Shown here piece by piece: positions 21,207-64,000 of a DNA stretch of 64,000 nucleotides (within the stretch, counting starts at the first letter, position 1; each line of letters opens with the position of its first letter). This DNA comes from an uncultured Gammaproteobacteria bacterium (GTDB taxonomy: Bacteria > Pseudomonadota > Gammaproteobacteria > CAKMZV01). Location of the stretch: assembly GCA_929200535.1 (NCBI GenBank), contig CAKMZV010000003.1, positions 25,171 through 89,170 on the forward strand, read 5' to 3'. A program made the translations under genes and the position numbers. The notes below the pieces were generated by a model. The model saw only the letters and a list, made by a program, of their open reading frames with translations, was not told the origin of the DNA and searched no databases.

Positions 21207-22649
21207 ATGGAAAAAAACAACACCGTCCAAACTGTCCCCTCTGATAATCATTATTCTGATGATGAAATTGACCTACGCCAAATATGCCAAAAAATTTGGC
21301 ACATCCGCTGGAAAGTCATTCTATTCTCAACCTTGTTTTTCACCTTAGGAGCATTATTTATCAGCATAAACTACTATAAAAATCAAAAAACAACCACACT
21401 GTCATATGTTGTTCATTTAGACAAAATCATAAACTCGAGATACCCTGACGGTACACAATTTAATCTTTCACATCTAACGCTACCCATAATCTTTACCCAA
21501 ACAAAAAAAGAATTAAATCTAACAGACCTTGACTACAAAAAATTTTCTGCTGCTCTCCAAATCACCTACTACAATCCTAACATTACGTTACTTAAAGAAC
21601 GCTTTGACGAACTTGCACGCGAGAAAAAAAATAAAAACCCCCAATCTATCCAAGCCCTCCAACAAGCTCTAAACGATCAACAAAATCAAAAAAGCAGCAT
21701 TCGCCTTATCTTAACTAATTCCTTAGGGCTAACCACTAACCAACAAGAAACACTACTGCTTTCCTTAGTAAAAAACTGGTCTGATTATTTTGTTGCTGAT
21801 GGGGTAATATCACACTTAAAAATCGAGTCACTGCCACCTTATATTGTTGAAAACTCTCCAACAGCCTATTTCAATATCGTCTCCTTTAGAGAGTATATGC
21901 TTGAGGTTAAAGATATTTTAAAAACCCTTATTCAAACTAATAAAGAACAAAAAAAATTTGAAAACACTAATAATCTCCTAAGGCTCCAAAACCGCATAAA
22001 TTCATTAGAAAAAAACTACCTTATTACCCTGCACCAATTATTCAACATAAACGAGAAAAAAACCAAAAAATTATTACAAAATAAACTCCTTATCGAAGAA
22101 AAAAAAGAGATCTTGATTGGGCTTAAAAAATCATTACAAGACATTCAAACAACCCTTTTAAAAAACCATACCCCTCTACCTTTATCCATCAATTCTGATC
22201 ACAATAAAACCTCTTCCCTGCCAGTATTTGACATCATTGCGGTAGGGAAAAAAGTTGGTTTTTCTGAAATCTATGAAAAGCTACTCAAACAAAAATTAGA
22301 TTTAGAGAGGGAAATCGCACAATTAAGGAACGATGAAGACAACCTTTCAAATCACTTCTCCGTCTATCTAAATTCACAAAGAAAACCAAGCACCATAAAA
22401 ATTAAACAATATGTAGCATTCACCCAACAATTTATAAGCATCAGTGAACAAATAAACCAACTCGCAAAAGAATACACAGCCCACTTCACCAATCCTAAAA
22501 CACAAACTCTCTACTCACAAAGCTATCAGCCCACTCACCTAAAAAACACATTTTCATTAAAAAAACAGTTAGTTATAGTGCTTGCCATATCGCTTTTCTT
22601 ATCCCTTATAACAACAATTATTTTGTTGTTAAGACAACCTAAAAAATAA
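21207..22649 (+). CDS. wzz: Wzz/polysaccharide co-polymerase-like chain-length protein
   Basis: DDEIDLRQICQKIW start, N- and C-terminal TM helices, coiled-coil periplasmic region; first gene of the glycan locus. Confidence 0.75.
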   Translation: MEKNNTVQTVPSDNHYSDDEIDLRQICQKIWHIRWKVILFSTLFFTLGALFISINYYKNQKTTTLSYVVHLDKIINSRYPDGTQFNLSHLTLPIIFTQTKKELNLTDLDYKKFSAALQITYYNPNITLLKERFDELAREKKNKNPQSIQALQQALNDQQNQKSSIRLILTNSLGLTTNQQETLLLSLVKNWSDYFVADGVISHLKIESLPPYIVENSPTAYFNIVSFREYMLEVKDILKTLIQTNKEQKKFENTNNLLRLQNRINSLEKNYLITLHQLFNINEKKTKKLLQNKLLIEEKKEILIGLKKSLQDIQTTLLKNHTPLPLSINSDHNKTSSLPVFDIIAVGKKVGFSEIYEKLLKQKLDLEREIAQLRNDEDNLSNHFSVYLNSQRKPSTIKIKQYVAFTQQFISISEQINQLAKEYTAHFTNPKTQTLYSQSYQPTHLKNTFSLKKQLVIVLAISLFLSLITTIILLLRQPKK

Positions 22650-22664
22650 ACACCTCTCAAACTT

Positions 22665-23984
22665 ATGCAAAATAAAACCTCTCAAAAAATTGTTTATGTT
22701 GGTATGAGTGCCGATCTCATACACGAGGGACACATTAATATTCTTAACAAAGCTGCCTCTCTCGGAAAAGTTGTCGTAGGATTGCTTACAGATGAAGCTA
22801 TTGCAAGCTACAAACGTGTTCCACATATGAATTTTGAACAACGTAAAGTAATCATTAATAGTATCAAAGGGGTAGATCAAGTTGAAGCACAACACACCTT
22901 AGATTACACCGATAATCTAACTAAAATCAAACCAAACTATGTCGTTCATGGTGATGATTGGAAAGAAGGTGTGCAAGCAACAACTCGCCAAAAAGTTATC
23001 GACACACTCCAACAATGGGGAGGTGAATTAATTGAAGTCGGTTATACTCCCGGCATTTCTTCGACTCAACTGCATCGCTCTATTAAAGAAATTGCCAGCA
23101 CACCAGATGTGCGTCTCAAACGCCTACGGAGATTACTACAGATTAAACCACTTATTCGAGTCAACGAAGTTCATAATGGATTGTCTGCTTTGATTACTGA
23201 AAAAACATCAGTGGATAAAGAAGATATGAAAACAGAATTTGATGCTATGTGGGCAAGTAGTCTAACCGACTCAACGGCTAAAGGAAAACCTGATATAGAA
23301 GCAGTAGATGTTTCTTCAAGGCTATCCTCTGTCAATGATATATTTGAGGTCACGACAAAGCCAATGCTGTTTGATGCCGACACAGGTGGAAAAGTTGAGC
23401 ATCTTGCCTTCACGATTCGTTCGCTTGAACGTCTTGGTGTCTCGGCTGCCGTGATAGAAGATAAAACAGGACTGAAAAAAAATTCACTCTTTGGCAATGA
23501 TGTTGAGCAGCACCAAGCCACCATCGAAGAATTTCAAGCTAAAATACGCGTTGCCAAAGAAGCGCAAATTACTGATGATTTTATGCTTATTTCACGTATT
23601 GAAAGCCTCATTTTGGAAAAAGGAATGGAGGATGCGTTAGCACGAGCAAGGGCTTATATTGAAGCAGGTAGTGATGGTATTATGATTCATAGCAGGCAAA
23701 AATCACCTGAAGAAATATTTGAGTTTTGTAAACAATACCACAGCAACCTACCAAAAACAGTTCCGTTAATGGTTGTGCCTTCCAGTTTTAACTCAGTCAC
23801 CGAAGATGAATGGATTAATCAAGGCGTGCAAATTGTGGTATATGCTAATCATATGCTCCGCTCAGCCTATCCAGCAATGTTAAATGTTGCACAATCCATA
23901 CTACGCCATGGTCGTAGTGCCGAAGCGGATCCTAATTGTCTCCCTATTAAAGAGATATTGGAGCTTATTCCGGGTACAAAATAA
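22665..23984 (+). CDS. pepM: Cytidylyltransferase-phosphoenolpyruvate mutase fusion
   Basis: N-terminal ADLIHEGH (HxGH) and VVHGDDW; PepM-diagnostic [10 protein letters not shown] (EDKx5NS). Confidence 0.96.
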
Positions 23985-25115
23985 ATGATTTGTCCTGATT
24001 TTTTTCATCGAACACTTAAAGACAACGGGGTTGATTTTTTTACGGGCGTGCCTGACTCCTTACTCAAAGAGTTTGGTAATTTTGTCTCCTCAATGCTCCC
24101 TACTACTCAGCATACCATTGCAGCAAACGAAGGAGCTGCTGTTGGGTTAGCAATTGGACATCACCTTGCTACTGGGAAAATTCCTTTAGTTTATCTTCAA
24201 AATTCAGGGTTAGGCAATACAATTAATCCCCTTGTTTCACTGGCGGATCCTACCGTTTATGGCATTCCTCTATTGCTTCTCATTGGCTGGCGTGGAGAAC
24301 CTGATATTCCAGATGAACCACAACATAAAAAACAAGGCCCCATCACCTTACCTACGCTGGACGCAATGGATATTAAATGGGCAACACTTCATAAGGACCT
24401 TTCATCCAAAGAAGTCATTTCAACCGTTGATACTGCTCTTCAACACTGCCGTCAACAACAAGCACCCTTTGCCTTAGTCGTGCATAAAAATACCTTTGAA
24501 AAATTCACTAAACCCAAACACACATCAGACTTAATTTTGCAACGTGAACAAGCAATTGCAACCATAATGAAATTTATCCAGCCTGATGATATTGTTGTCG
24601 CCACAACTGGGATGATTTCACGTGAGCTATATGAGCAAAGAGAAATGCAAAATCAATCTCATCAACAAGATTTTTTAGTCGTTGGGGGAATGGGTCATTG
24701 TAGTTCTATTGCCCTACGTATAGCTATGGAAAAACCTAACCGAACAATCTATTGCCTTGATGGTGATGGTTCAATACTTATGCATATGGGCTCTTTAGCC
24801 GTTGCCGGCACCAGTGCTTGTAAAAATTTTAAACACATCGTACTTAATAATGGCGTACATGATTCAGTCGGAGGACAACCCACTGTGGGTCTGACTATTG
24901 ATATGCCAAATATTGCCAAAAACTGCCACTATCGCCATACTCACTCGGTTGAAACAAGCGAGCAACTTGAAAATACTCTACCTGATTTCATCAATCAATC
25001 AGGACCTTGCTTTTTACAAGTTTGTGTCAAACCTGGCAATCGTGCTGACCTTGGCAGACCAACACAAACACCCCAAGAATGCAAAGTGCATTTTATGCAA
25101 CACCTCTCCTCATAA
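23985..25115 (+). CDS. aepY: Phosphonopyruvate decarboxylase
   Basis: FFTGVPDSLLK, ANEGAAVG, YLQNSGLGN, DEPQH, DGDGSILMHMG..LNNGVHDSVGGQ. Confidence 0.95.
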   Translation: MICPDFFHRTLKDNGVDFFTGVPDSLLKEFGNFVSSMLPTTQHTIAANEGAAVGLAIGHHLATGKIPLVYLQNSGLGNTINPLVSLADPTVYGIPLLLLIGWRGEPDIPDEPQHKKQGPITLPTLDAMDIKWATLHKDLSSKEVISTVDTALQHCRQQQAPFALVVHKNTFEKFTKPKHTSDLILQREQAIATIMKFIQPDDIVVATTGMISRELYEQREMQNQSHQQDFLVVGGMGHCSSIALRIAMEKPNRTIYCLDGDGSILMHMGSLAVAGTSACKNFKHIVLNNGVHDSVGGQPTVGLTIDMPNIAKNCHYRHTHSVETSEQLENTLPDFINQSGPCFLQVCVKPGNRADLGRPTQTPQECKVHFMQHLSS

Positions 25116-25127
25116 AACATCTATCTA

Positions 25128-26243
25128 ATGAAACAACAACTCTACATCAATCAAGGATTTGCAGCTTGGGATGGTATCCTAAAACAATATCAACCCCAAA
25201 AAACCCTACTTGTATGTGGAAAGCAATCCTATCGCTCCATAGAAGCAATTGTACAACCCCTACTAACTCAACTATCAGGAAAAATAATTACTTTTAATGA
25301 GTTTGGTAAAAAGCCTTGTATTGAGGATATTTTCCGTGGCATCACCTTATGTCGAGAAGAGAACGTTGATTTAATTATTGCCATTGGGGGTGGCCATTGC
25401 ATTGATACAGCAAAGGCCATTAATTTATTAAGCAAACAACCTATTTCACTTAATAATGCCAATGATTTAGCAGAAAGCATTCGTGGCAACACGACATTAA
25501 TCCCAACTGAATGCCCTCTAATTGTGATGCCCACCACATGCGGATCAGGCTCTGAAGCCACACACTTTGCCGTCGTTTATATTGGCTCCGACAAATTCTC
25601 ATTAGCCCACCCCAGCATCTTGGCTGATTGGGTAATTGCTGATAAATGTTTAGTCAACTCACTACCTCACTCAATCGCTGTATATACAGCCTTAGATGCT
25701 CTATGCCAAGCCATAGAATCCTACTGGTCAGTCGGTGCAACACAAGAGAGTGAAGAGTACGCACTCAATGCCTTAAAAATCATTAGCCCGCATCTTCAAA
25801 ACCAATTTACTATAAATGATCAATTTTTTACGGATATGGTACTCGCTGCAAACTATGCTGGTCGTGCCATTAATATTTCCAAAACAACTGCCCCACACGC
25901 CCTATCCTACTACTTAACCGATCAATTTGATGTCCCCCATGGGATTGCCGTGGCACTAACTCTTGGAGCCGTAGCAACCTATACTGAAATCAATGCAGAA
26001 AATCACACTCAGAAAAAAATACAAACAATAAAGAATATACTTAATTTTTCAGATGAATTTTCTCAGTCATGGTACGACTTTATTGCTTCACTTGATATTG
26101 CTTGCAAATTATCTGACTACAATCTGAAAGAAGAACACTTAGAAAAAATGGTGAACTCAGTTAATTTACAAAGACTTGCCAATCACCCAATTAATTTTGA
26201 TACAAAACAACTAAAACAGGTGCTGAAATCACGCTATATTTAA
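25128..26243 (+). CDS. Phosphonoacetaldehyde reductase (Fe-ADH family, PhpC/FomC-like)
   Basis: AIGGG..IDTAK, PTTCGSGSEAT, DALCQAIES, HALSY, PHG; third gene after pepM-ppd. Confidence 0.88.
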   Translation: MKQQLYINQGFAAWDGILKQYQPQKTLLVCGKQSYRSIEAIVQPLLTQLSGKIITFNEFGKKPCIEDIFRGITLCREENVDLIIAIGGGHCIDTAKAINLLSKQPISLNNANDLAESIRGNTTLIPTECPLIVMPTTCGSGSEATHFAVVYIGSDKFSLAHPSILADWVIADKCLVNSLPHSIAVYTALDALCQAIESYWSVGATQESEEYALNALKIISPHLQNQFTINDQFFTDMVLAANYAGRAINISKTTAPHALSYYLTDQFDVPHGIAVALTLGAVATYTEINAENHTQKKIQTIKNILNFSDEFSQSWYDFIASLDIACKLSDYNLKEEHLEKMVNSVNLQRLANHPINFDTKQLKQVLKSRYI

Positions 26244-26536
26244 GTACTCAAATCCTGTGCTGATTTTTTGCAGACTTCCATACTATAAATATTTCCGACT
26301 ATTTCCGATCTGCAAAATATTTTTCATAGTACCTTAACCTTATACCAATGATAGCCCAAAAATGTACTGCCATTATCAAAACCTTTACAACAACAATGGG
26401 ATAAAGCATACAACATATGTTTATACGGAATATGACATTGGTTTATCCAAAGGACGAAATATTACTGTGAGTTATGTTAAACTATAGCCTCAAGTCTCTT
26501 AACCAAAAAAAGCTAATTTTCATATAAAGCTCACCT

Positions 26537-27769
26537 ATGAAGCGTAGGATACTCTCAAATGCAGCTTCCTTAACAGTGATTCAAGTAGCGAATTATGTCA
26601 CTCCCTTAATCGTGCTCGTTTATCTTGCCCGTATATTAGGAACTGAGCTTTATGGAGTTCTAGCATTTTCTCAAGCGATTATAACCATAAGTAGTATATT
26701 TACAGACTTTGGATATTCTTTATCTGCGACAGACAAAATTTCAAAGAATAGAGAGAAGCTTAATTTTGTATCCACAATTATAGGCGGGATTTATTCTTTT
26801 CAATTTTTACTCTTTATATGTTGTGCAATAGTAATTATTACATTTGCACATTTCAGTCAGACATATCATGAACACAAGACTTTATTATTACTAACACTAG
26901 TGCCAGTCTTTGCACAAACATTCTATCCTTTGTGGTTCTTCCAAGGCATAGAAAAAATGAATTTACTAGCTTTTTTTTCTATTACTATCAAAATAATATA
27001 TGTACTTCTGGTAATTTACTTCATAAAAACCCCCAAAGACTATACTTTTGTTCCTTTACTTAGTGGGCTTGCACACGGCACTGGTCTCTGTATGTCTATA
27101 GCTATAATTTACAGATTAGGTTACAAAATAATTATCCCGAATAAAACAAAAATATTGTACTGCATTAGTTTTTCTAGAAAATTTTTTGTTTCACGTATGC
27201 TTGTTATGATTTACATGAATAGCTCAGTTTTAATTCTTGGGCTTATTGCAAACTCATCTATTGTCGCCACATACTCAATAGCAGAGCAACTATATAAAGC
27301 AATGCAATCTGCAATAAGTCCACTATCTGCAGCGACATATCCATTTATGGCAAAGGAAAAAGATATTAAGCTGATGATGAAATTAATATATTACTGTGTT
27401 TTTTTTGTTATTGTAGGAGCTATTTTAGGATATTTTATTAGCCCCACTCTAATACACTATTTTTTTGATCAGTCATGGGAAAACTCCTTGTCCATACTAA
27501 ATATATTTTTTATTGCAATTGTATTTCACGCAGGTACTGTAATGACTGGCTATCCTCTTGCAACAGCAGTGGGTCGTATAGACGTTGCTAATTCATCGGT
27601 TATTACTGGTGCTCTTATCTACTGTACTGGCATTATCGTATTATTTTTATTTGGACAAATAAACCCGTTAATGCTAGCCTTTCTTATGATTATTAGTGAG
27701 CTTGGGGTTTTAGCCAAACGGGCTTTTATACTGATACCCGTGGCAATGCAAAAAATATCAAATGACTGA
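26537..27769 (+). CDS. wzx: Wzx flippase
   Basis: YLARILG..YG, PLWFFQGIEKM, YSIAEQLY; about 12 TM helices. Confidence 0.9.
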   Translation: MKRRILSNAASLTVIQVANYVTPLIVLVYLARILGTELYGVLAFSQAIITISSIFTDFGYSLSATDKISKNREKLNFVSTIIGGIYSFQFLLFICCAIVIITFAHFSQTYHEHKTLLLLTLVPVFAQTFYPLWFFQGIEKMNLLAFFSITIKIIYVLLVIYFIKTPKDYTFVPLLSGLAHGTGLCMSIAIIYRLGYKIIIPNKTKILYCISFSRKFFVSRMLVMIYMNSSVLILGLIANSSIVATYSIAEQLYKAMQSAISPLSAATYPFMAKEKDIKLMMKLIYYCVFFVIVGAILGYFISPTLIHYFFDQSWENSLSILNIFFIAIVFHAGTVMTGYPLATAVGRIDVANSSVITGALIYCTGIIVLFLFGQINPLMLAFLMIISELGVLAKRAFILIPVAMQKISND

Positions 27770-29322: not shown

Positions 29323-29350
29323 TCTTAATGAATATAAGCCCCCCTAAATT

Positions 29351-30636
29351 ATGTCGTATTTTTCACTGCTAATATTAATTACTAGTCATGTTATGTGCTG
29401 GTGGCTCATTGGCGGAAGACAAAAATTACAACATAGTCCAGTCAAAATCAGCACCTTACTTAGTGGAATACACACTATCCCACACTATATTATTTGTACA
29501 ATTTCCCCAGAAAATTCTTGGCTATACCCCTCTCTTGGTAATAAATATATCATTTATTTGATAGAGTTTGGAATTCTGTATTCTTTAGGGTTATTTATAC
29601 AAGCGCTCTGTATAAGTACCGCTAGCAAAATAAAAATGCCAATAGCTACTAAATTAACTATAGAGCCTCATTATCCTTTTAGAAAAGCCGCATTACTGCT
29701 ATTTACAGTTTATATATCAATACTATTGGTATATTTTAATAAAATTGGTGGGTTGCAATACTACCTTACTCATTTTAATAACCGAGATGAGTTGCGAGCT
29801 GGCCTTGGGATACTAGATATGTGTAAATTTCCTGTCGCATATTTAACTATATTATTTTTAGTAGCTTCCTCCCTAAATCTTCGTCTAACCTTTTTTTTCT
29901 TATTGTAATCTTTATGGCAATGATTGAAATGCTATTCGGTGGACGCAGAAATCCAATCCAATTTTTGTTATTTGGGTTAATAGGCTTATTAATGGTTGAT
30001 AAAAATAGACAACTATTTTCACCAAGCAGTATAGTTATTACACTTCTCTCCATATCAATTTTTATTGGTTTGTACTCCTTTAGAGCATTACATGTATCTC
30101 AATCCGAAGTAGATATTGATATCTTGACGTATGTACTGAATATTAGCTACAATGATATCTATATCTTTATAATATCTCATTTTTCTAATAATGATTTTTG
30201 GTATGGTTCTATATATCTAGATATTTTTTATAAAATTTTCTCTTACTTTAATGGTTCAACAGGTCCATCGCTAGACGAAGGGCTTTATATATATAATATC
30301 TATAGAGGAAATTTCATTGAGCCACCCATGATCTTGGAGCAAATATATCAAAATTCATTCCCACCTAGGACTTTTGGTAATGGTTATATAAACTTTGGAA
30401 TCGCAGGAGTATTAATATTTTTTTCTATCAAAGGTACGCTAACTGGTCTAGCTTATAAAATCATGACTAAATCTAACTATAATCCTATTTTTATGTATAT
30501 TTACTTAATCATGATTTTTTCTTTTCAATTAAGTAATTTAAAATTATTTGAATTTATGACTATTTGTAGTGCATTAATACTCCTATCAATACCATTAAGA
30601 TTAATTAAAAAACGGCAAACTACCACCTATAGATAG
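29351..30636 (+). pseudogene. wzy: Wzy O-antigen polymerase split by a frameshift at T8 (29891-29898)
   Basis: Two hydrophobic ORFs (29351-29908, 29914-30636) join into one frame if one T is added; GGRR and GYINFGIAGV Wzy-like motifs. Confidence 0.75.
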
Positions 30637-30906: not shown

Positions 30907-32034
30907 ATGAATGAACGAGAGGGAATTTTAAATAAAAAAATATTTTTTATTGGGACATTACCACCACCTATTGATGGACAATCAAAAATTGCATCAATCG
31001 TATTGGAAACGATGTATGAAAACAATGCAGACGTGATGGTGCTCAACCTCAATAGAGCTAGGATTTCACGAACTTTTACAGATCAAATTAGGCGTTTTTT
31101 TGGGATATTATTGATTTATTCAAAAGTGATTTTGAGTCAAAAAAATGTAGATTCAATTTATTTTACTATCTCAGAATCTAAATTAGGTAATGTGAAAGAT
31201 TTAATTTTGTATTTATTAATTTACAAAAGACTCAAATTGCTAACCATACATATGTTAGGGGGAGCTAATATGGATAAAATTTTAAATAATAATAGCTTAT
31301 TATCTATGCTGAATGTTTTTTTTATGAAAAAAATGCGTAATGTTATAGTAGAAGGTGCACGTGGTCAGCAAATATTCGCAAAGACATTTACAAAAAATAA
31401 TATTCACATCACCCCTAATTTTGCCGATGAATTTCTATTTTCATCAAAAGAGATATGTCTGGAAAAATATGAAAACATTGAAAAAATAAAATTATTGTAT
31501 CTTAGCAATATGATACCTGAAAAAGGATACTTAACACTAGTTAAAGCTATCCAGCTGTTGCCATCTAAAATCATGTCTCAATTTGAGATAACATTTGTTG
31601 GCGGATTTCAACACCAGAAACATCAAAAAGAATTTAATGAATGTATTCGAAACATGCCTATGATAAAATATCTAGGTCCATTCATTGATGGAGAGAAAAA
31701 AAAATCTCTTTACCTGTCTTCACATATCTTTTGCTTGCCAACATATTACCCTTATGAAGGACAACCTGTCAGTATATTGGAGGCATATGCAACAGGTTGT
31801 GCTGTTATAACTACTGAACACGGAGGCATTTTAGATATTTTCAAAGATAATATTAATGGATTTACTGTTAAAGCTAATTCTCCCGCGGCTTTATCTTCGT
31901 GTATGCGTTCCATTGCTACAGATCGACAAAAATTAAAATATTTTGCATTACGTAATATTGAAGATGCGATTACAATGTATACAAAGCATAGATTTAAATC
32001 ACAAATATCGGATATATTCTTTCTAACTCATTAA
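30907..32034 (+). CDS. GT4 glycosyltransferase
   Basis: LPPPIDGQ, EKG, EGQPVSILEAYATG (Ex7E). Confidence 0.88.
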   Translation: MNEREGILNKKIFFIGTLPPPIDGQSKIASIVLETMYENNADVMVLNLNRARISRTFTDQIRRFFGILLIYSKVILSQKNVDSIYFTISESKLGNVKDLILYLLIYKRLKLLTIHMLGGANMDKILNNNSLLSMLNVFFMKKMRNVIVEGARGQQIFAKTFTKNNIHITPNFADEFLFSSKEICLEKYENIEKIKLLYLSNMIPEKGYLTLVKAIQLLPSKIMSQFEITFVGGFQHQKHQKEFNECIRNMPMIKYLGPFIDGEKKKSLYLSSHIFCLPTYYPYEGQPVSILEAYATGCAVITTEHGGILDIFKDNINGFTVKANSPAALSSCMRSIATDRQKLKYFALRNIEDAITMYTKHRFKSQISDIFFLTH

Positions 32035-32050
32035 AATTACTTAAAATTAA

Positions 32051-32767: not shown

Positions 32768-32768
32768 T

Positions 32769-34528: not shown

Positions 34529-34532
34529 ATAT

Positions 34533-36336: not shown

Positions 36337-36339
36337 AAA

Positions 36340-37443: not shown

Positions 37444-37447
37444 AAAA

Positions 37448-38578: not shown

Positions 38579-38579
38579 T

Positions 38580-49576: not shown

Positions 49577-49591
49577 ACACCTCTCAAACTT

Positions 49592-52042: not shown

Positions 52043-52054
52043 AACATCTATCTA

Positions 52055-53170: not shown

Positions 53171-53267
53171 GTACTCAAATCCTGTGCTGATTTTTTGCAG
53201 ACTTCCATACTATAAATATTTCCGACTATTTCCGATCTGCAAAATATTTTTCATAGTACCTTAACCT

Positions 53268-53500
53268 TATACCAATGATAGCCCAAAAATGTACTGCCAT
53301 TATCAAAACCTTTACAACAACAATGGGATAAAGCATACAACATATGTTTATACGGAATATGACATTGGTTTATCCAAAGGACGAAATATTACTGTGAGTT
53401 ATGTTAAACCCTACACTCTATATATTAGATGATAATTTTAAATTTTGGAGAAATACTAAAATAGAGATATTTTTGAATATTTTAGAAATAAATAATCTAA
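53268..53500 (+). pseudogene. GT-A fold glycosyltransferase relic crossing the repeat border
   Basis: YTNDSPK...YDIGLSKGRNITVSYVK, then in a shifted frame YILDDNFKFWRNTKIEIFLNILE. Confidence 0.55.
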
Positions 53501-53507
53501 GAAAACA

Positions 53508-55211
53508 ATGTTAAAGCAATTGCATAAGTTACGGACTTTACTATCCCGAAAAGATAAGAAAATCTTAGTTTTTCTTTTAATTTTTTCCGTTTTTATTTCT
53601 TTAGTGGAAACGATAGGAATCTCCCTAATTATGCCGTTTGTCTCTATGGCAATTGATTTTACTATTATTGAGAGAAATCAATACTTAAATCAATTTTTTG
53701 AACTATTGAATTTTGAAAGTCCAAGATATTTCGTCCTATCATTTGGACTATTTCTTGTGTTTTTCTATAGCACCAGAGGACTCATTAACTTAATTTATAT
53801 CTATTCTTTAAATCATTTTACTCATCGCAAATTCCATACCATTGCTACTCAATTGTTCGAGAAATATATGAATCTACCCTATAAAAATTTTGTACAAAAT
53901 AATAGTTCGCAATTCACCAAAACCATCACAATAGAAATTGCACATTTAACCTCTTTAATTAAATCAATTTTATTAATGATTAGCGAGTTTTTTGTGACAT
54001 TATTGCTATACATTTTAATGTTTTATGTTAACTATAAAGTCACACTAATATTAACTATCGTATTTATCATAAATGGATTATTTTTGGTAAAAGCCATTTC
54101 AAAAAAAATTAAAAAATTGGGAGTAACTCGAGCATCAATGCAAACCGTTTTTCATGAAGTGATGAATCGAAGTTTTGGAAATTTCAAATTTATTAAATTA
54201 TCCGATTACGGAAAAAAAGCACATCAAGACTTCAGTGAATCCAGCCTAAGTTATGCTAACTCAATTATAAAATCCGAAACATTGCAGCAATTTCCACGAC
54301 TTTTTTTAGAAGCTTTAGCCTTTGGCATCATATGCTTGATTATCACTTATATTGTGTGGGAAGATGAAGATCATATAGCAAGCTTTTTATCAGTGATAGC
54401 CTTATTTGTGCTATCACTTTATCGACTAATGCCCTCGCTCAATCGTATTATCTCGAGCTACAATATAGCTGTTTTTTACTACAAGTCATTGGATATTACT
54501 CACGCAGCCATGCTGCATGAAAATGAAAAATTAGGCAACGAAAAAATTACTTTTCAACATCATATTACACTCAATAATGTTAGCTTTGAATACATTGAAA
54601 ATAAACCTATTTTTAATGATGTAAATCTTCAAATAAACAAAGGGGAAAAAGTGGCTTTTATTGGCGAAAGCGGCGGAGGAAAATCAACCTTAGTTGATCT
54701 TATCATGGGATTACATACACCCAACCAAGGAAATATAAGCATTGATAATATCCCATTATGCCAAGACAATATTAAATCATGGAGACATCAAATCGGATAT
54801 ATCCCCCAAAACATTTATTTATTTGATGGTACAGTGGCTGATAATATTGTTTTTGGCAGAGATTATGATGAAAAAAAATTAATTAACGCGTTAGAAAAAG
54901 CAAATATATATGATTTTTTACAAACTCAAAATGGTATATCCACACAAGTTGGTGAAGGAGGAATTGTATTAAGCGGCGGACAAAAACAACGAGTTGCCAT
55001 TGCAAGAGCTCTATACGACAATCCTGAAACGCTAGTCTTAGATGAAGCAACCAGTGCCCTTGATAGTGAAACAGAAGAAAAAATTATGGATGAAATATAT
55101 AAGCTATATCAAGATAAAACACTAATTGTCATTGCTCATCGAATTAGCACTACAAAAAGGTGTGATAAAACATACGTTTTAAAAAAAGGAAGACTCGTTT
55201 TGTCTCAATAA
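53508..55211 (+). CDS. PglK/Wzk-type ABC flippase for lipid-linked oligosaccharides
   Basis: Six TM helices plus NBD (GESGGGKST, LSGGQKQR, LDEATSALD); SVFISLVET, LMISEFFV.LLLY, NFKFIKL and YRLMPS recall Campylobacter PglK. Confidence 0.85.
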   Translation: MLKQLHKLRTLLSRKDKKILVFLLIFSVFISLVETIGISLIMPFVSMAIDFTIIERNQYLNQFFELLNFESPRYFVLSFGLFLVFFYSTRGLINLIYIYSLNHFTHRKFHTIATQLFEKYMNLPYKNFVQNNSSQFTKTITIEIAHLTSLIKSILLMISEFFVTLLLYILMFYVNYKVTLILTIVFIINGLFLVKAISKKIKKLGVTRASMQTVFHEVMNRSFGNFKFIKLSDYGKKAHQDFSESSLSYANSIIKSETLQQFPRLFLEALAFGIICLIITYIVWEDEDHIASFLSVIALFVLSLYRLMPSLNRIISSYNIAVFYYKSLDITHAAMLHENEKLGNEKITFQHHITLNNVSFEYIENKPIFNDVNLQINKGEKVAFIGESGGGKSTLVDLIMGLHTPNQGNISIDNIPLCQDNIKSWRHQIGYIPQNIYLFDGTVADNIVFGRDYDEKKLINALEKANIYDFLQTQNGISTQVGEGGIVLSGGQKQRVAIARALYDNPETLVLDEATSALDSETEEKIMDEIYKLYQDKTLIVIAHRISTTKRCDKTYVLKKGRLVLSQ

Positions 55212-55316: not shown

Positions 55317-56090
55317 ATGATATCCATGCAAAAAAAGACACCCATCTATTTAATTTCCTTAGCACAAGATAGTCAAAGACGCAAAGAGCTCAAACAGAAA
55401 TTCCCTAAGAGCTATGCTCAATTTATTCAGATAGAAGCCACCGATGGAAGACAATTAACGGCGACAGAGTATTATGAGAAGGCGATCAAATTCTTCAGAA
55501 AATCTAACAGAATAATGTTACCTACAGAATTGGGGTGTACCTTAAGCCACATTCATGCTCTTGAGGAATTTATTAAAACCAATTCTCAATACGCCCTTAT
55601 ATTAGAAGATGATGTCGAAGGTGAAGATAAAGATATAATAAAAATCTTAAATCTAATAAAAAATTTTGAACCCAAATCTCTATTAATTTGCGGTAGAATA
55701 GCTAATAAAAACTATCCATTTGGTAAAAAAACAAGTATTGAAGGACTGTATGAAATCTCCCATTTAACCCACCAATTTATCCATAGAGCCTGGAGTTATG
55801 TCGTCACTAAAAAATCGGCAAATGAGATTATAGAATACCATAAACATAATTTAACTATTGCTGATTGGTGGAATGATATTTTTAAAGATACAGATACAAA
55901 AATTTACTATACTAATATCCTCTCACATCCTATATGTCGAGCAAAGAGCCATATGGAAACAGACAGAGCTCAATTTAATCAATCTCTATGGGAAAAAATT
56001 ACATCTATAAAGAGTATTAAACATAAATTAAAAAAGGAAATTGTGAAAGTAATTATCCAATTAAAAGGCTATAAAAAAATAAAAGATTAA
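55317..56090 (+). CDS. GT25 glycosyltransferase
   Basis: YLISL...RR, EATDG, ELGCTLSH, LILEDD. Confidence 0.9.
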   Translation: MISMQKKTPIYLISLAQDSQRRKELKQKFPKSYAQFIQIEATDGRQLTATEYYEKAIKFFRKSNRIMLPTELGCTLSHIHALEEFIKTNSQYALILEDDVEGEDKDIIKILNLIKNFEPKSLLICGRIANKNYPFGKKTSIEGLYEISHLTHQFIHRAWSYVVTKKSANEIIEYHKHNLTIADWWNDIFKDTDTKIYYTNILSHPICRAKSHMETDRAQFNQSLWEKITSIKSIKHKLKKEIVKVIIQLKGYKKIKD

Positions 56091-56580: not shown

Positions 56581-57825
56581 TTGAACAAAATAAAAAAAAC
56601 ACCCCAAGAGGTAATTAAATTCATCAAAATTGTACTCCATAGCTTATTACATATCATACGCTTATTTTCTTTCATAACACCAAGGAACCGAAATTTTTGG
56701 CTCTTAGGTAGCTTTGGCGGTTCGTTTAATGATAATGCCAAGTATTTGTTTATTTATATACATAATAACCATCCAGAAATAAAAATTGCTTGGATTTCAA
56801 ACAATAAAAAAACAGTTTCATTTCTTAGGGAGAAAAGTTTTTCCGCTTACTACAAATGGAGTATTCAAGGTATTTACTATAGCCTTGTAGCTGGTGTTTA
56901 TATTTATAATGCCTATATTAATGACATTAATAGTTGGACTTATGGGCGTGCTGTTAAAGTAAATTTGTGGCACGGTTTTTTTGCTAAAAAAATAGAATTT
57001 GATATCAAAAAAGGCGTGCTTGCCCCAGTCTTTAATAATTCATTAAAAAGTCGACTCCTTTATCCCAAGGAGTATATAAAGCCAGACTTTGTTTTATCTG
57101 CTTCTGAGAAAATGTCAGAATTATTTTCATCAGCCTTTAGAATTAATTCCGCTCAATGCTTAAATTTTGGCTATACGCGCAACAATATCTTACAATTACC
57201 TAAAAATGATATAAAAACATTTATCAAAAACAATGAGCCGCCTAACACGCTTAATATATTAGAAAAATTAACACATTATAAAAAAATTTATGTCTATATG
57301 CCTACATGGCGAGATAACCATGCAGATTTTATAGAAAACTCAGGAATATGTTTTGAAACACTTAATGATTTAATGATTGAAAACAATCATTTCTTCATCT
57401 TCAAAGTACATAATAATACACACATAGAGATTGATTTAAGCCAGTATCCTAATATTTTTTTATTTGATAACAAATCTGACATCTATCCATTACTACCTTT
57501 TACCGATGTCCTTATTACTGATTATTCTTCAATTTGCCTTGACTATAAAGTAATGAATAAGAACGTTATTTTTTATTGTTTTGATGAAGCTTCCTATTTA
57601 GAAGAAAGGGAAATGTACTTTGACTATCAAGATGTTCTTAAGGGCGAAACTGTTGCAAGAACTTTTAACGAACTATTACAGTGTATCCAAAAGGATGCAA
57701 GTTACCAACAACCAAAAACACCAAATACACTTATGCAACAACTCATCCCAACTGGAAAAAATTCAAGCAAAAATTCAAGCAAAAAATTAGTTGATTTTAT
57801 AAAAAAACATGTGAAAATAAAATGA
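56581..57825 (+). CDS. CDP-glycerol glycerophosphotransferase (TagF/TagB) family protein
   Basis: FNDNAKYLF, NLWHG..KKI, GYTRN, YMPTWRD, KVH, DVLITDYSS. Confidence 0.88.
   Translation: MNKIKKTPQEVIKFIKIVLHSLLHIIRLFSFITPRNRNFWLLGSFGGSFNDNAKYLFIYIHNNHPEIKIAWISNNKKTVSFLREKSFSAYYKWSIQGIYYSLVAGVYIYNAYINDINSWTYGRAVKVNLWHGFFAKKIEFDIKKGVLAPVFNNSLKSRLLYPKEYIKPDFVLSASEKMSELFSSAFRINSAQCLNFGYTRNNILQLPKNDIKTFIKNNEPPNTLNILEKLTHYKKIYVYMPTWRDNHADFIENSGICFETLNDLMIENNHFFIFKVHNNTHIEIDLSQYPNIFLFDNKSDIYPLLPFTDVLITDYSSICLDYKVMNKNVIFYCFDEASYLEEREMYFDYQDVLKGETVARTFNELLQCIQKDASYQQPKTPNTLMQQLIPTGKNSSKNSSKKLVDFIKKHVKIK
57757..57780 (+). repeat. 12-bp in-frame tandem duplication (KNSS x2)
   Basis: AAAAATTCAAGC repeated twice near the TagF-like C-terminus. 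Confidence 0.8.
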
Positions 57826-58142: not shown

Positions 58143-58997
58143 ATGGACGCAGATACCAAATCAAATTATGTGGGTAAAACCTTGAGACAACATCAAATAG
58201 ATTGTGTCTCAGTGCTAAAAGCAGCTCACGATTTTTTTCAAAATAACGATTATCCATACTTTATTGGTGCTGGAACTTTATTAGGAGCGGTTCGTCATGG
58301 AGGCTTCATTCCTTGGGACGACGATATCGATATTTTCATGCTAATTGATGATTTTAATCGCCTACTCCACTCTACTAAAATGAATAAAAATATAGCCTCT
58401 GACTACGACATAAAAATTTCCCAATCACCTATAGATCCCTTTTTCTTAGGCATTTCGAGTACAAATCCTAATAGTAGTGGAGTAATTGATATATATCCAC
58501 TTGAGCGTTATCGTAAAAAAATTCCATTATTGCGTACGATTTATCAAAAAACTATATCGGTTGCAGTTTTACTTAATTTCCACGGAATCTTACCTGACCT
58601 AATCAATCAATCGAAACCTTGGTTTATAAAGAATAATCAATACCAAGGCAGAGTACATAAAGCTGGAGACCCTTCGACAATAATTCGTTATCTTAAAGCT
58701 ACTCGATTATTATGGAGAACTACCTTGCCTATTGTCATTTCCACATTTAGATTATTACGAAAACTATCTGTATCAAAAGATGGTCCTTGGGTATCAAATC
58801 ACTCTCAATCCCGTTTTACATTTTTATACATAAAATATGAAGATCTTGTTCCTGCTAAAATAATAAATTTTGAAAAAATTAATGTCTATGCACCCAATAA
58901 ACCCAAAAAATGGTTGGAATCTAATTATGGAAAAAATTATATGCAACCCCCTCCTCTCAAAAAGCAAATACCTCATCATTTTGATTTTCAAGAATGA
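58143..58997 (+). CDS. LicD-family phosphotransferase
   Basis: GTLLGAVRHGGFIPWDDDIDIFM, IDIYPL, YGKNYMQPPP. Confidence 0.9.
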   Translation: MDADTKSNYVGKTLRQHQIDCVSVLKAAHDFFQNNDYPYFIGAGTLLGAVRHGGFIPWDDDIDIFMLIDDFNRLLHSTKMNKNIASDYDIKISQSPIDPFFLGISSTNPNSSGVIDIYPLERYRKKIPLLRTIYQKTISVAVLLNFHGILPDLINQSKPWFIKNNQYQGRVHKAGDPSTIIRYLKATRLLWRTTLPIVISTFRLLRKLSVSKDGPWVSNHSQSRFTFLYIKYEDLVPAKIINFEKINVYAPNKPKKWLESNYGKNYMQPPPLKKQIPHHFDFQE

Positions 58998-59478: not shown

Positions 59479-60264
59479 ATGCAAGACAAAAAAGTACCTA
59501 TTTATCTCGTTTCCTTAACACAAGATATCCAAAGGCGAGAAGCACTAAAGCAAAGATTTCCCAAGAATTATCCGCATTTTATTCATATAGAAGCTGTTGA
59601 TGGTAGGCAATTAACCGCGAAGGAATATTATAATCAAACCTTAGACTACTTTATCAAATCAAACAGAACAATGTCACCTGCAGAACTCGGTTGCACCTTA
59701 AGCCATATTCGTGTTCTCGAGGGATTTATTAAAACCGACTCTCAATATGCTCTTATATTAGAAGATGATATTGAGGGTAGTGATGATGATATACAAAAAA
59801 TATTCAGTCTCACCCAAGCTTTGATGAGCAACTCACTTGTACTTTGCGGGGGACAATTGGATATAAAGGGGAAAAAATATCGATTTGGTAAAAAAACCAA
59901 TATAAAAGAACTATATGAAGTTTATCCTTTGTCCTACCCGTATATCTACGGCACTTGTTGTTATGTGGTTACTAAAAAATCAGCAAATAAAATTTTAGAA
60001 TACCATAAAAATAGCCTAACTATTGCTGATGGATGGAATGATTTTTTTAAAGATACCGATATAAAAATTTACTACGCCAACCTGCTCTCGCACCCTTTAG
60101 ATTTATCTAATAGCCATATTGAACAATATAGAGTTCAAGCTCAATCCCATAAAAAAACTCTATGGAAAAAATTTGTATCTCCAAATTTTCTTATTACTAT
60201 GGCTAAATTAAAAATAATACCCATAATTGCTTCATTAATGGGTTATAAAAAAATAGAAGATTAA
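59479..60264 (+). CDS. GT25 glycosyltransferase, paralogue of 55317-56090
   Basis: YLVSL..RR, EAVDG, ELGCTLSH, LILEDD. Confidence 0.9.
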   Translation: MQDKKVPIYLVSLTQDIQRREALKQRFPKNYPHFIHIEAVDGRQLTAKEYYNQTLDYFIKSNRTMSPAELGCTLSHIRVLEGFIKTDSQYALILEDDIEGSDDDIQKIFSLTQALMSNSLVLCGGQLDIKGKKYRFGKKTNIKELYEVYPLSYPYIYGTCCYVVTKKSANKILEYHKNSLTIADGWNDFFKDTDIKIYYANLLSHPLDLSNSHIEQYRVQAQSHKKTLWKKFVSPNFLITMAKLKIIPIIASLMGYKKIED

Positions 60265-60433
60265 CCACCGTTATACTAAAGAAGGGTGTACATATTATCT
60301 CGACAATGACTAGAGCACTAAGCAAATTTTAGGATACTTTTCTCCATAATATCTCTTGCTTTTCCTATGACAAACAAAACTTACCTAACATTCCACCGAC
60401 GATACCCTATTGGGTAAAATTAAACATTGGAGA

Positions 60434-60479
60434 CATACAATTTACCTATACAAATTACCTATACATACAATTACCTATA
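60434..60479 (+). repeat. Three imperfect tandem repeats with core TTACCTATA
   Basis: Cores at 60442, 60455 and 60471, upstream of a GT2 gene. Confidence 0.7.
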
Positions 60480-60574
60480 ATAATGGAAAGTTTTTTTGTG
60501 GACATCCAAAAGTGGGGAAACTTCTTGAATATGGTACATTCTTTGCTACAACCATAGTTGGGAGGGAGGACTAA

Positions 60575-61600
60575 ATGAAAACACAACCCGATATCAGCCT
60601 TATTGCCATTGCTTATAATTTGGAAGATTATATTGAAGAATGTCTAAATTCTCTTGTAAATCAAACTCATAAATCCATAGAAATCATTGTTGTTGATGAT
60701 GGTTCAACCGATTCAACTTTATCCAAAATTCAGACAATCGCACAAACAGATCGTCGCATCAAAGTACTTTCACAAAAAAATCAAGGTTCTAATTCAGCGA
60801 GAGAAAATGGTTTTAAAATTGCCAAAGGAAACTATGTCCAATTTATCGATGGCGATGATTGGCTCGATCTAAACACTTGCAAACATCTCTATAAAAAAGT
60901 GCAGGAGCAAGAGGAAAACGTTGATGTTATCCTCTTTCATTCTCAGAAAGTTTATCCCGATGGAATGGAGATAGCGTGCACTGGGTTTACACAGAAAAAA
61001 ACTTATTCTCACCCCTTCAAAGAATATTCTACTGGAGTATTCACTACATCTATAGGAACAAAATTTATTCGACGAAAATTCCTAACTGAACATGCCTCTT
61101 GTTTCCTAAAAAATGTAACCTATGGAGAAGATTTAATTTATAGTGCCTTATTTTTTCTATATAACCCCAAAGTCGCTTTTGTCGATGAATTCCTTTATTA
61201 CTACCGCCAAAGAAAGGATAGTTTACAATACAATATCCAAGGCTATAGTGAGGATTGCGAAAAAATATTCTCCGCTTTACAAGTAGGTTTTGACAACATA
61301 AAGCCTTGCCAAGAGTTACAAGATTATAGGCAATTTTTTACCCTGAAGCATCTTATTTATATTTACGCTAGAGCTCTACAGTCTAACAATAAAAAAATAG
61401 CCGCTAAAATCGCCACAAAAATTCTTAAAAAAAAATTTACAGTACCCTCACACATCCCACAACCCTCACTTATTTATTGGTTGGGGTTTAAACTTTATAA
61501 TATTTCTCCGAATCTCCTACTTTTTATGTACAAAATATATAGAGTTATTAAAGCTGTTTTGATTCCCTCAAAAACAATAAATAAGCAATACATAAAATAA
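60575..61600 (+). CDS. GT2 glycosyltransferase
   Basis: AYNLEDYIEECL, VDDGSTD, FIDGDD, GED, YYYRQR; strong SD GGGAGGGAGGA. Confidence 0.92.
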   Translation: MKTQPDISLIAIAYNLEDYIEECLNSLVNQTHKSIEIIVVDDGSTDSTLSKIQTIAQTDRRIKVLSQKNQGSNSARENGFKIAKGNYVQFIDGDDWLDLNTCKHLYKKVQEQEENVDVILFHSQKVYPDGMEIACTGFTQKKTYSHPFKEYSTGVFTTSIGTKFIRRKFLTEHASCFLKNVTYGEDLIYSALFFLYNPKVAFVDEFLYYYRQRKDSLQYNIQGYSEDCEKIFSALQVGFDNIKPCQELQDYRQFFTLKHLIYIYARALQSNNKKIAAKIATKILKKKFTVPSHIPQPSLIYWLGFKLYNISPNLLLFMYKIYRVIKAVLIPSKTINKQYIK

Positions 61601-61618
61601 ATTAGTTGCCTATTTCCC

Positions 61619-62041
61619 GTGATTTTCTCAATAACAATGCCGTTATATAACAAAGTTCAATCCGTAGTTCTTACCCTCCAGCCAATACTAGAACACTCTT
61701 TTCCACATTTTAAAGTTATTATTGGCAACAACAGTTCAGTCGATAATGCATCTAATAAAATTCAAACCTTTTCAAAAAAAAATCCAAAGCTAAGTGACGT
61801 ACGAAAAATTAGCTTTCAAGTTGCCAAAAAAAAATATGTTCAATTTGGCGATGATTATCTTTATAAATATCACCAAAAAATAGAATCCCTCCCTATACTT
61901 AAAACAAAAAATTTTACAAATTTTTTGAATATTCAGATTCAACATAGTTCAATTTTTCAATTCATATTCTACAAAACGTATGCAATTTTCCCCATAATTG
62001 CTACATTTTCTCTCCCCCCTAACAACAAATTGAAAAATTAG
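61619..62041 (+). pseudogene. Degenerate GT2 fragment
   Basis: FSITMPLYNK, VIIGNNSSVD (decayed DDGS), KKYVQFGDD. Confidence 0.65.
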
Positions 62042-62048
62042 CAACCCT

Positions 62049-63068
62049 ATGAATCAAGAAATTAAAAAATACACACAACCAAATATCAGCCTTATTGCCA
62101 TTGCTTATAATTTAGAAGACTATATTGGAGAATGCCTAAATTCTCTTACAAATCAAACTCATAAATCCATCGAAATAATTGTTGTTGATGATGGTTCAAC
62201 CGACTCTACTTTATCCAAGATTCAAGCCATCGCACAAACAGATTGTCGCCTCAGAGTGCTTTCACAAAAAAATCAAGGTCCTAATTCAGCAAGAGAAAAT
62301 GGACTTAAAATTGCCAAAGGAAAATATGTCCAATTTATTGATGGCGATGATTGGTTAGCTCTGGATGCCTGCGAAAAGCTCTATCAAAAAGCAGAGGAAG
62401 GTAAGGCTGATGTTATCTTATTTCATGCTCAAAGAATATATCCTGACAAACAAATTAGCCCCCTCATGGGGTTCCATAAAAAAACACGCTATCGACACCC
62501 TTTTAAAGAGTTTGCTATGAATACCTACGATCACCCTATTTATCTCAAGTTTATTCATCGAGTCTTTTTATTTGATAATAATATCTCTTTCCCAGCAAAA
62601 ATCACTTATGGTGATGACACAACCTTTAGTGCATTATTTTACCTTCATAGCCCACATATAAATTTTTTGGATGAATTTATCTATTGCTATCGCCAAAGAA
62701 CTAAAGGAAATAGTCATGATTTACAGGGATTTATAAATGATATGAATAAAGTTATAAACATCTTAAAATCTATAAAAGCTTCAAAATTCAATCAAGAAAT
62801 AGAAGATTATGCTAATTACTTGATACTTAGCTATATGGCGACATTTTACTATAGAGCTCTATTGGCTAAAAGAGAAGATATAGCATCTCTTTTAGCGGAT
62901 AGAATTTTAAAAGAAAAAATTTTTATCGCATCACATATTCAACACCCCTCACCTCTTCGTTGGTTAATATATCAAATTTACAATCACTTTCCTCAATTTT
63001 TATTGACTATACATAAAATAAGAGCATTTATTCGAGGACTTTACAAAAGAGATAGGATGGAAGAATAA
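62049..63068 (+). CDS. GT2 glycosyltransferase, paralogue of 60575-61600
   Basis: Near-identical N-terminal ~95 aa; DDGSTD, FIDGDD. Confidence 0.92.
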   Translation: MNQEIKKYTQPNISLIAIAYNLEDYIGECLNSLTNQTHKSIEIIVVDDGSTDSTLSKIQAIAQTDCRLRVLSQKNQGPNSARENGLKIAKGKYVQFIDGDDWLALDACEKLYQKAEEGKADVILFHAQRIYPDKQISPLMGFHKKTRYRHPFKEFAMNTYDHPIYLKFIHRVFLFDNNISFPAKITYGDDTTFSALFYLHSPHINFLDEFIYCYRQRTKGNSHDLQGFINDMNKVINILKSIKASKFNQEIEDYANYLILSYMATFYYRALLAKREDIASLLADRILKEKIFIASHIQHPSPLRWLIYQIYNHFPQFLLTIHKIRAFIRGLYKRDRMEE

Positions 63069-63084
63069 TCGTATTTGAATGCAC

Positions 63085-64000
63085 ATGAAAAAAATAAACC
63101 CACTTTTTATTATTGTCTTGTTATATATTGCTTTCTATGCTATTTGGAGAAATTTATTTTTCTTCTCAGAGTTTAGAGTAGAAGTTACCCTCTTTCGAAA
63201 TTTAGGGATTATCTTATTAATATTAACAACGCTATTTTACACAATTAAAAGAGGTATAAATTACCAACCTACCAACATCTTGCTATATGCTTTCGGTATA
63301 TATAGCTTCACCCAATATATGGTACTATCTGCTGAACAAAGCCAAATTTATGTGGCAATATTTTCTATATCTATTCCCTTAACCTACTTGGCAGCACAAA
63401 TATTTTCATATAAACTTGATTTTTTATTTATAAAAAAAATATTGATTTTTTTATTTTTATTGATGTGTATTAGCTATTTTATAGTTAATATTTCCAACAC
63501 TGCTGGTAGTTTTTTCATTCACTCTGGAGATCGAATGAGGCACACATTTGGATTTATAAGACCAAGTCAAAATGCTGAAATAATACTTGTTATGTTCTAT
63601 GCTTTAGCTCTATTACACACTCACTCAATGATAAAAAAGATAAATTCTTTCTTTATTTTTGTTCTTATTTTAATTATGTTGTATTTATCCGGTGCAAAGG
63701 CTGCTATGGTGAGCCTTATAGTATTTTTTGCATCTATAGCTATTTTCCCAAAAATTAAAACTCAAAAGGCATTTCTTGGTATTTGTTTTGTTTTTTTTGT
63801 ACTGTTTTTTATAGTGGTTTATATTATATTAACTCAATTCACTTTTTCAGAATTAAACAGGATTTCCAGCACTAGGCTTATCATTTGGACTAATCACTTC
63901 AACTATTATTGTGAAGACCTTATGGATTTTATTTTTGGAAGTAGTAAAATATATGAAATAAGTCGTGTTTTTCATACAGATTCTTTCTATGTAGATTTGC
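63085..64000 (+). CDS. O-antigen ligase/polymerase family membrane protein (3'-truncated by window edge)
   Basis: Hand-translated open frame MKKINPLFIIVLL...; many TM helices; LSGAKAA, SSTRLIIW, FIFG and HTDSFYVDL echo Wzy_C/WaaL motifs. Confidence 0.65.
   Translation, partial: MKKINPLFIIVLLYIAFYAIWRNLFFFSEFRVEVTLFRNLGIILLILTTLFYTIKRGINYQPTNILLYAFGIYSFTQYMVLSAEQSQIYVAIFSISIPLTYLAAQIFSYKLDFLFIKKILIFLFLLMCISYFIVNISNTAGSFFIHSGDRMRHTFGFIRPSQNAEIILVMFYALALLHTHSMIKKINSFFIFVLILIMLYLSGAKAAMVSLIVFFASIAIFPKIKTQKAFLGICFVFFVLFFIVVYIILTQFTFSELNRISSTRLIIWTNHFNYYCEDLMDFIFGSSKIYEISRVFHTDSFYVDL

Follow-up and report, generated by a model that had tools for sequence, protein, structure and literature searches.

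Why should one bacterial genome carry the same three phosphonate genes twice, each time at the head of a different glycan locus? This question was raised by a 64,000-nt stretch of DNA (hereafter the window) from an uncultured gammaproteobacterium (assembly GCA_929200535.1; 1.97 Mb, 50 contigs, 37.5% G+C), which corresponds to positions 25171-89170 of contig CAKMZV010000003.1 (i.e. C3). The repeated element, referred to as the cassette, comprises genes for a fusion of a cytidylyltransferase (CyTase) domain to PepM, a phosphonopyruvate decarboxylase (Ppd) and an iron-type alcohol dehydrogenase (Fe-ADH), and the two copies are 27 kb apart. Copy 1 is followed by a locus with a Wzx-type flippase (locus A) and copy 2 by a locus with a PglK-like ABC exporter (locus B). 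The favoured answer, which is regarded as probable on balance, is that the cassette would produce 2-hydroxyethylphosphonate (HEP), that this would serve two glycan loci and that the twin state arose recently by recombination.

Two identical cassettes in one strain

The two copies form a direct repeat of 3901 nt (22582-26482 and 49509-53409), the one such repeat returned by blastn, with an identity of 99.85% and no gaps. All six mismatches lie within 22586-22604 and a core of 3878 nt (22605-26482) is 100% identical in both copies. These data bear out the claim of an earlier note on this DNA that a pepM(+cytidylyltransferase)-ppd-Fe-ADH cassette occurs twice.

The region 20500-28500 was then compared to Logan contigs of four public sequencing runs (i.e. 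X1, X2, X4 and X5). X1 is the probable source run, so that its reads are likely the same as those of the genome assembly, but they were assembled independently. In X1, the core assembled into a single contig without branches, exactly 3878 nt long, with a word depth of 67.8, ~2.1 times that of all three flanks. On the left, the flanking contig (26,395 nt) also carried housekeeping genes and had a depth of 31.4 while the right flanks had depths of 32.6 (Wzx side, 18,885 nt) and 32.7 (7,241 nt, leading into the sequence after copy 2). Both right-hand junctions were present. A core of about double depth between flanks of single depth indicates that there are two identical copies in one strain, and the equal depths of the housekeeping contig and the locus-specific flanks exclude an equal mix of two strains. 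Reads had been named in the earlier note as the place where a merge of two strains would become apparent, and here they revealed two true copies. An assembly artefact or strain merge might be suspected since the genome is a draft of 50 contigs, some with runs of N, since a perfect 3.9-kb repeat is hard for short reads to span and since run X2 looks mixed. Against these points stand the X1 depths, the housekeeping contig, the two junctions and the fact that A-R-B-R-C (R, the repeat; B, locus A) is the sole linear order for direct repeats that uses all of the flanks, making an artefactual origin extremely unlikely.

Other runs differed from X1. The repeat in X2 had about twice the depth of the left flank (41.6 vs 22.2) and was joined to three right flanks (10.8, 12.4 and 19.5); the Wzx-linked copy had a diverged tail, with 31 differences in 2 kb of the locus A flank as compared to 3 in the left flank. 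For X4 (other organism label) and X5 (other study), a single contig extended from the wzz-like gene through the cassette, where the depth did not rise. Neither run had any cover on the Wzx flank (26641-28500) and the contigs continued into a tandem array of CCTACACTCTA. The presence of one cassette and lack of a Wzx flank in these runs indicate that the twin state is strain-specific and not a fixed design. It is proposed to have arisen recently, through homologous recombination, in a strain-specific manner. The simplest history has an A-R-C arrangement in the X4 and X5 strains and A-R-B-R-C in the present strain, with B being gained or lost through recombination in the cassette.

The left edge of the repeat lies within the final 68 nt of a 480-aa wzz-like open reading frame (ORF; 21207-22649) and the right edge is abrupt, 239 nt past the ADH stop codon, at the end of a shared tail that, as read by eye and without a search match, looks like a fragment of a glycosyltransferase (GT) family 2 gene. 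A wzz-like 3' end on the left and a GT2-like tail on the right indicate that the cassette moved as a block from a wzz-cassette-GT2 context. No transposase or integrase families surfaced in general Pfam scans of the 54-kb gene block containing both loci and there were no tRNA genes within the window. Between the cassette and locus B, ~90 nt ahead of the PglK-like gene, the 11-mer CCTACACTCTA forms a repeat of variable copy number; contigs of X2, X4 and X5 end at its array.

The distribution of PepM was examined in genomes of the same class. A protein over the cut-off was present in 38 of the 400 genomes scored and two copies were found only in this genome, a count that is a floor since drafts collapse identical repeats (one genome, G251, was unscored and four unpublished genomes, G043, G144, G298 and G310, were included with one match each). 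The search for further genomes with two pepM genes, as proposed in the earlier note, recovered this genome and no other among the 400 scored. True PepM was absent from four genomes of the same family. In a Chitinophagaceae metagenome-assembled genome, two cassettes (L073 and L080) with 83% identity over 3.1 kb were present on short contigs; these may represent a second two-copy genome or a binning mix. Multiple neighbourhoods of phosphoenolpyruvate (PEP) mutase (Ppm) genes per genome are known, with the accessible text of Li and Horsman (2022, PMC8942020) giving 869 neighbourhoods in 723 genomes (e.g. Burkholderia pseudomallei). As far as that text goes, the two Ppm of B. pseudomallei fall in distinct clades, implying different products, in contrast to the identical copies flanking a glycan locus that are described here. 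In the literature searched, no published description was found of identical cassettes bracketing one glycan locus and heading a second locus of another flippase class; the supplements of PMC8942020 and PMC6697681 could list cases.

Predicted chemistry of the cassette

PepM scored 404 bits against TIGR02320 (cut-off 319.55) and the EDKxxxxxNS motif, given as the PepM motif in the accessible part of PMC6697681, was visible in an alignment with structure 5x3d, consistent with PEP mutase. Ppd, whose gene begins 1 nt past the pepM stop codon, scored 475 bits against TIGR03297 (cut-off 312.5). The CyTase domain aligned over residues 7-143 with the CyTase structure of Fom1 (5x3d; E-value of 9.6e-58), had the sequence features of the Fom1 type and is predicted to make CMP-HEP. 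Fe-ADH matched PF00465/PF25137, and the best NCBIfam match was to the phosphonate-linked model TIGR03405. From family membership and gene context, which are the basis for every step, PEP mutase and Ppd would generate phosphonoacetaldehyde, Fe-ADH would reduce this compound to HEP and the CyTase domain fused to PepM would activate HEP to CMP-HEP. The LicD enzymes (double in locus A and single in locus B) and a TagF-like protein (locus B) would then use CMP-HEP to attach the hydroxyethylphosphonyl group to hydroxyls of sugars, such that both glycans may carry HEP.

Signs of a competing branch were absent. No PhnW-type transaminase of the genome was over the cut-off. Pfam scans of ORFs of at least 100 aa, with no search aimed at MpnS or HepD, detected nothing MpnS/HepD-like in the locus; among ORFs of this size in the 54-kb block, no further phosphonate-tailoring families were matched by Pfam and five ORFs were family-less. 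An ORF from a Pelagibacteraceae locus (L045) that was chosen as an MpnS probe proved to be a GMC oxidoreductase.

The closest parallel for the fusion protein is Fom1 of the fosfomycin pathway of Streptomyces wedmorensis, which has the same CyTase-PEP mutase order and an HEP-supplying Fe-ADH in the same cluster. As stated in the accessible part of PMC6697681, Fom1 produces CMP-HEP, and a fused CyTase domain is present in 23.6% of Ppm enzymes. The present cassette differs in having no tailoring enzymes of the Fom3/Fom4 type and in a context, predicted from sequence, of glycan assembly rather than antibiotic production. A second parallel is provided by the Pnt pathways for cell-surface 2-aminoethylphosphonate (AEP; Rice et al. 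2019, PMC6697681). In the portion of that paper available, a cytidylyltransferase beside or fused to Ppm activates the phosphonate, LicD-like phosphotransferases and glycosyltransferases are neighbouring genes, and LicD-like genes near Ppm are already reported. The Pnt pathways use, however, the LicC-type PntC (PF12804) and AEP made by a transaminase, whereas a Fom1-type PF01467 domain is present here, with the ADH instead of the transaminase and without a PhnW over the cut-off. HEP phosphonoglycans are on record for two actinomycetes, Glycomyces sp. and Stackebrandtia nassauensis (Yu et al. 2014, as cited in the accessible text of PMC8942020 and PMC13576164), where HEP is on an exopolysaccharide and a PhpC-type ADH is in the cluster; HEP-type neighbourhoods make up 8.5% in the former source (PMC8942020). 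By the same partial accounts, those are Gram-positive organisms with one cluster, as compared to a predicted Gram-negative-type lipopolysaccharide (LPS)/O-antigen context with two cassette copies here.

The transfer step and its donor

Relatives of the fusion protein were collected (n = 338; best, 70% identical; many phyla and archaea) and 80 loci were fetched. Ppd came after PepM in 79 of these 80 loci, and an Fe-ADH homologue came after Ppd in 72. The first ORF of at least 150 aa after the ADH was tallied for 62 loci, eight having been excluded for lack of a Ppd or ADH match, one (L045) for another gene order and nine for lack of a downstream ORF. TagF-like genes (14 loci) and LicD genes (11 loci) were the commonest, followed by GT2 (five loci). 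The TagF-like gene started within ~100 nt of the 3' end of the cassette ADH gene in L022, L027, L037, L038, L047, L067, L074, L085, L093 and others, representing several phyla.

TagF-like enzymes transfer glycerol or ribitol phosphate. The TagF-like protein of locus B belongs to PF04464 (171 bits) and, in comparison to the TagF structure 3l7i, retains the histidine of a WHG motif and a later 'vH' histidine, which we take to be the catalytic residues of TagF. All three LicD regions in the window are members of PF04991 and contain GTLLG..R..PWD.DID. The other PF01467/PF12804 proteins of the genome were assigned to CoaD, NadD, RibF, MobA, KdsB, MurU-like, GalU and RfbA, with HldE and GlmU being assigned by length alone, and none was TagD, TarI or LicC. 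This absence, the conserved gene order of the cassette, the lack of a visible competing branch, the neighbourhood counts and the kept TagF histidines together make CMP-HEP the likely donor for the LicD and TagF-like enzymes of both loci. The HEP/CMP-HEP logic of the earlier note is thus upheld at the level of prediction by the match to the Fom1 CyTase, the lack of a PhnW over the cut-off and the prevalence of LicD and TagF-like neighbours.

A third LicD locus is located on another contig (C5:54400-60400; L097:6410-12409). This locus encodes a 500-aa fusion of an NTP-transferase to a HAD-IIA domain, a CDP-alcohol phosphatidyltransferase, a 92-aa ORF, a LicD-like protein, a 425-aa ORF without assignment and GT4/GT1 proteins; the fusion has a weak likeness to inositol-1-phosphate cytidylyltransferase. 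With such a set of genes, the LicD and TagF-like enzymes might use another CDP-alcohol while the phosphonate is incorporated into a lipid or a small molecule or is modified further, and the donor specificity of LicD/TagF relatives is not readable from sequence. This alternative is considered very unlikely as TagD, TarI and LicC are lacking, the C5 genes have their own LicD and are distant from C3, a TagF-like or LicD gene directly follows the cassette in 25 of 62 related loci, and no Pfam match to another phosphonate-tailoring family was obtained for ORFs of at least 100 aa in the block, in which five ORFs are family-less.

With CMP-HEP retained as the likely donor, a broader proposal can be made. 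TagF-like proteins could be a widespread second class of CMP-HEP-dependent phosphonyl transferase, possibly forming a teichoic-acid-like poly(hydroxyethylphosphonate) on Gram-negative glycans, since HEP still has a free terminal hydroxyl after transfer; the identical cassettes could at the same time act as 3.9-kb repeats for loss and gain of the 23-kb Wzx locus, with strains switching between one and two phosphonate glycans. Taken jointly, these ideas are speculative and quite unlikely to hold in full. No published report pairing the cassette, HEP or a phosphonoglycan with TagF or a glycerophosphotransferase was found in the literature searched, supplements aside.

To our knowledge, producers of HEP esters are few and none of the transferases is known. 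For this problem the locus provides a small, testable set, namely a single cassette, three LicD domains and a TagF-like enzyme; strains with one and with two copies occur naturally and can be compared, and the recurrent pairing of cassette and TagF-like gene points to the missing transfer step. HEP esters are reported to be a major form of phosphonate bound to polysaccharide in marine dissolved organic matter and to be a precursor of ethylene via C-P lyase (as cited in the accessible text of PMC13576164 and PMC8942020). An ecological role of this kind had been put forward for a 'probable marine sulfur oxidiser'. SoxB and the RuBisCO large subunit were not found in the genome, which is rated 100% complete, and neither was the C-P lyase protein PhnJ; the label is unsupported and the ethylene claim has no basis for this organism.

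Gene content and integrity of the two glycan loci

Table 1. Coordinates of the cassettes and glycan genes (window numbering)
Feature	Position	Strand	Evidence or remark
480-aa Wzz/PCP-like ORF (tentative label)	21207..22649	+	last 68 nt inside repeat copy 1
Repeat copy 1	22582..26482	+	identical core 22605-26482
CyTase-PepM fusion, copy 1	22665..23984	+	PF01467 + PF13714; TIGR02320; 439 aa
Phosphonopyruvate decarboxylase, copy 1	23985..25115	+	TIGR03297; 376 aa
Fe-alcohol dehydrogenase, predicted phosphonoacetaldehyde reductase, copy 1	25128..26243	+	PF00465/PF25137; 371 aa
Shared tail with GT2-like gene fragment	26244..26482	+	translation '..YDIGLSKGRNITVSYVK' in both copies
Wzx-type flippase	26537..27769	+	PF01943, 132 bits
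Double LicD, 471 aa	27907..29322	+	PF04991, two regions
Wzy-like membrane protein, split	29351..30636	+	185-aa and 240-aa ORFs, break at T8 tract 29891-29898
Glycosyltransferase and sugar-nucleotide genes of locus A	30907..45171	+	GT1, amidotransferase/HisH/HisF-like trio, three UDP-HexNAc-modifying genes, GT, Bac_transf initiating transferase, ATP-grasp, HAD, DegT, PglF-like dehydratase
Truncated epimerase pseudogene	45295..45813	+	middle lost; C-terminal remnant next in another frame
gmd, rfbB, rfbA	46269..49279	+	PF16363; TIGR01181 498 bits and TIGR01207 493 bits, both over cut-off
Decayed remnant of wzz-like gene 3' end, upstream of copy 2	49457..49576	+	still alignable at 49482-49508
Repeat copy 2	49509..53409	+	CyTase-PepM 49592-50911, Ppd 50912-52042, Fe-ADH 52055-53170, tail to 53409
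Single CCTACACTCTA unit	53410..53420	+	directly after copy 2; tandem array in runs X2, X4, X5
PglK/Wzk-like ABC exporter	53508..55211	+	NF050066 best match, 646 bits, cut-off 1000
GT25	55317..56090	+
TagF-like phosphotransferase	56581..57825	+	PF04464, 171 bits; sole one in genome
LicD	58143..58997	+	PF04991, 90 bits
GT25, GT2, GT2 fragment (61619-62041), GT2	59479..63068	+
Wzy_C/O-antigen-ligase-like protein	63079..64000	+	full gene 384 aa, ends past window

Locus A (26537-49279; Table 1) would direct synthesis of a Wzx-dependent, O-antigen-like unit begun on a bacillosamine-type sugar. Matches to PF01943 and PF04991 agreed with the description of copy 1 as heading a Wzx locus with a double LicD, both regions of which retain the LicD motif. 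For the Wzx/Wzy pathway, Wzx and the Bac_transf initiating transferase were matched, the Wzy candidate is split and family-less (the two ORFs have four and three hydrophobic segments, respectively) and Wzz is assigned by topology and one Atlas lead. The 480-aa ORF had no match in Pfam, NCBIfam or PDB, contained hydrophobic segments only at residues ~35 and ~449 and was near an Atlas cluster (one cluster) in which 27% of members have PF02706 Wzz; it is tentatively considered to be Wzz-like. This ORF was also considered as an MpnS/HepD candidate and rejected, since it lacked a family or PDB match and its two terminal hydrophobic segments are of the PCP/Wzz type rather than those of a cupin.

Several observations speak against HEP synthesis for two functional loci in a recombination-born twin arrangement. 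The Fe-ADH score was far below the TIGR03405 cut-off (160 vs 424 bits), and this enzyme has only 25-43% identity to its counterparts in related cassettes. The Wzy-like gene is interrupted at the T8 tract, with the second frame being open from 29827 and one added T joining the ORFs; this break may be a slip-strand switch, a mutation or a sequencing error. Neither of the ORFs labelled Wzz or Wzy had a Pfam match to those families, and the locus A epimerase (45295-45813) is a pseudogene. Scans for promoters and terminators around both copies were at the level of shuffled sequence, such that operon structure is not readable from them, and no RNA run was listed as containing this stretch of DNA. 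The X2 depths fit neither a simple one-strain nor a two-strain model, the C5 locus may supply another CDP-alcohol donor and the second cassette copy could be a mere by-product of recombination. With regard to the ADH, the contrast between its 25-43% identity and the 60-70% identity of PepM to related cassettes (L017-L096) would reflect either a much faster evolution than that of PepM or a replacement.

The last of these objections can be developed into an explanation in which duplication followed from the stacking of two alternative glycan loci. One copy would then be enough and either a single locus gives an HEP product, most likely locus B with its TagF-like and LicD genes, or locus A yields only unpolymerised units. 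The single-copy strains of X4 and X5 without a Wzx flank, the 100% identity of the copies, which precludes functional divergence, and the split Wzy-like gene and pseudogene of locus A are all in keeping with this explanation. Conversely, a double LicD belonging to locus A directly follows Wzx and keeps both motif regions, LicD recurs beside the cassette elsewhere (11 of 62 loci) and the T8 split could reflect a sequencing error or reversible slippage. A by-product origin is judged to be unlikely but credible, and HEP decoration by both loci is preferred. The gene content described for locus A in the earlier note holds, with Wzy as a candidate; the locus is not fully intact, given the split, family-less Wzy-like gene and the epimerase pseudogene.

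Locus B would produce an oligosaccharide through a WecA-like enzyme and GT25, GT2 and GT10 transferases, with flipping by the PglK/Wzk-like ABC protein. Matches were obtained for the ABC gene (best model PglK, below the cut-off) and the TagF-like, LicD, GT25, GT2 and ligase-like genes, in line with the description of copy 2 as heading a locus with this gene content. A true MsbA is encoded on contig C23 (697 bits), indicating that the locus B protein is an ABC exporter in addition to it. The position given to the whole system, starting at 21207, was correct; its extent fell short, as locus B continues for ~11.6 kb past the end of the window with genes for GT9-like, GT2, methyltransferase, GT4 WecA-like, UDP-sugar dehydrogenase, epimerase and GT10 proteins. 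The known routes most similar to locus B are the Helicobacter pylori-type WecA/Wzk/WaaL route for O-antigen and PglK of Campylobacter. Locus B shares with these a PglK-like ABC protein, a GT4 WecA-like protein, GT25, a GT10 fucosyltransferase-like protein and ligase-like genes; it differs in that the ABC protein is under the curated PglK cut-off and that lipid A-core or protein are both possible acceptors. Stronger Wzy_C proteins of 709 and 431 aa are encoded outside the locus (C6:15189-15698 and C21:33252-33764). One of this pair could be the true WaaL, and the 709-aa protein may resemble an O-oligosaccharyltransferase, which would allow protein glycosylation.

The whole block from 21207 to ~C3:100,700 (~54 kb) has every gene on the plus strand. 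It is flanked on the left by genes for homocysteine methyltransferase and phosphoglucomutase (minus strand) and on the right by an amine oxidase gene and plsX-fabHDG. The ops/JUMPStart core GGCGGTAG had one match, at chance level, located on the minus strand within a GT2 gene. Two GT2 paralogues of locus B (within 60575-63068) share 89% identity in the first 300 nt, and the 140-aa GT2 fragment between them contains two A9 tracts (61774 and 61826), with a further A9 tract at 61427 inside the first GT2 gene.

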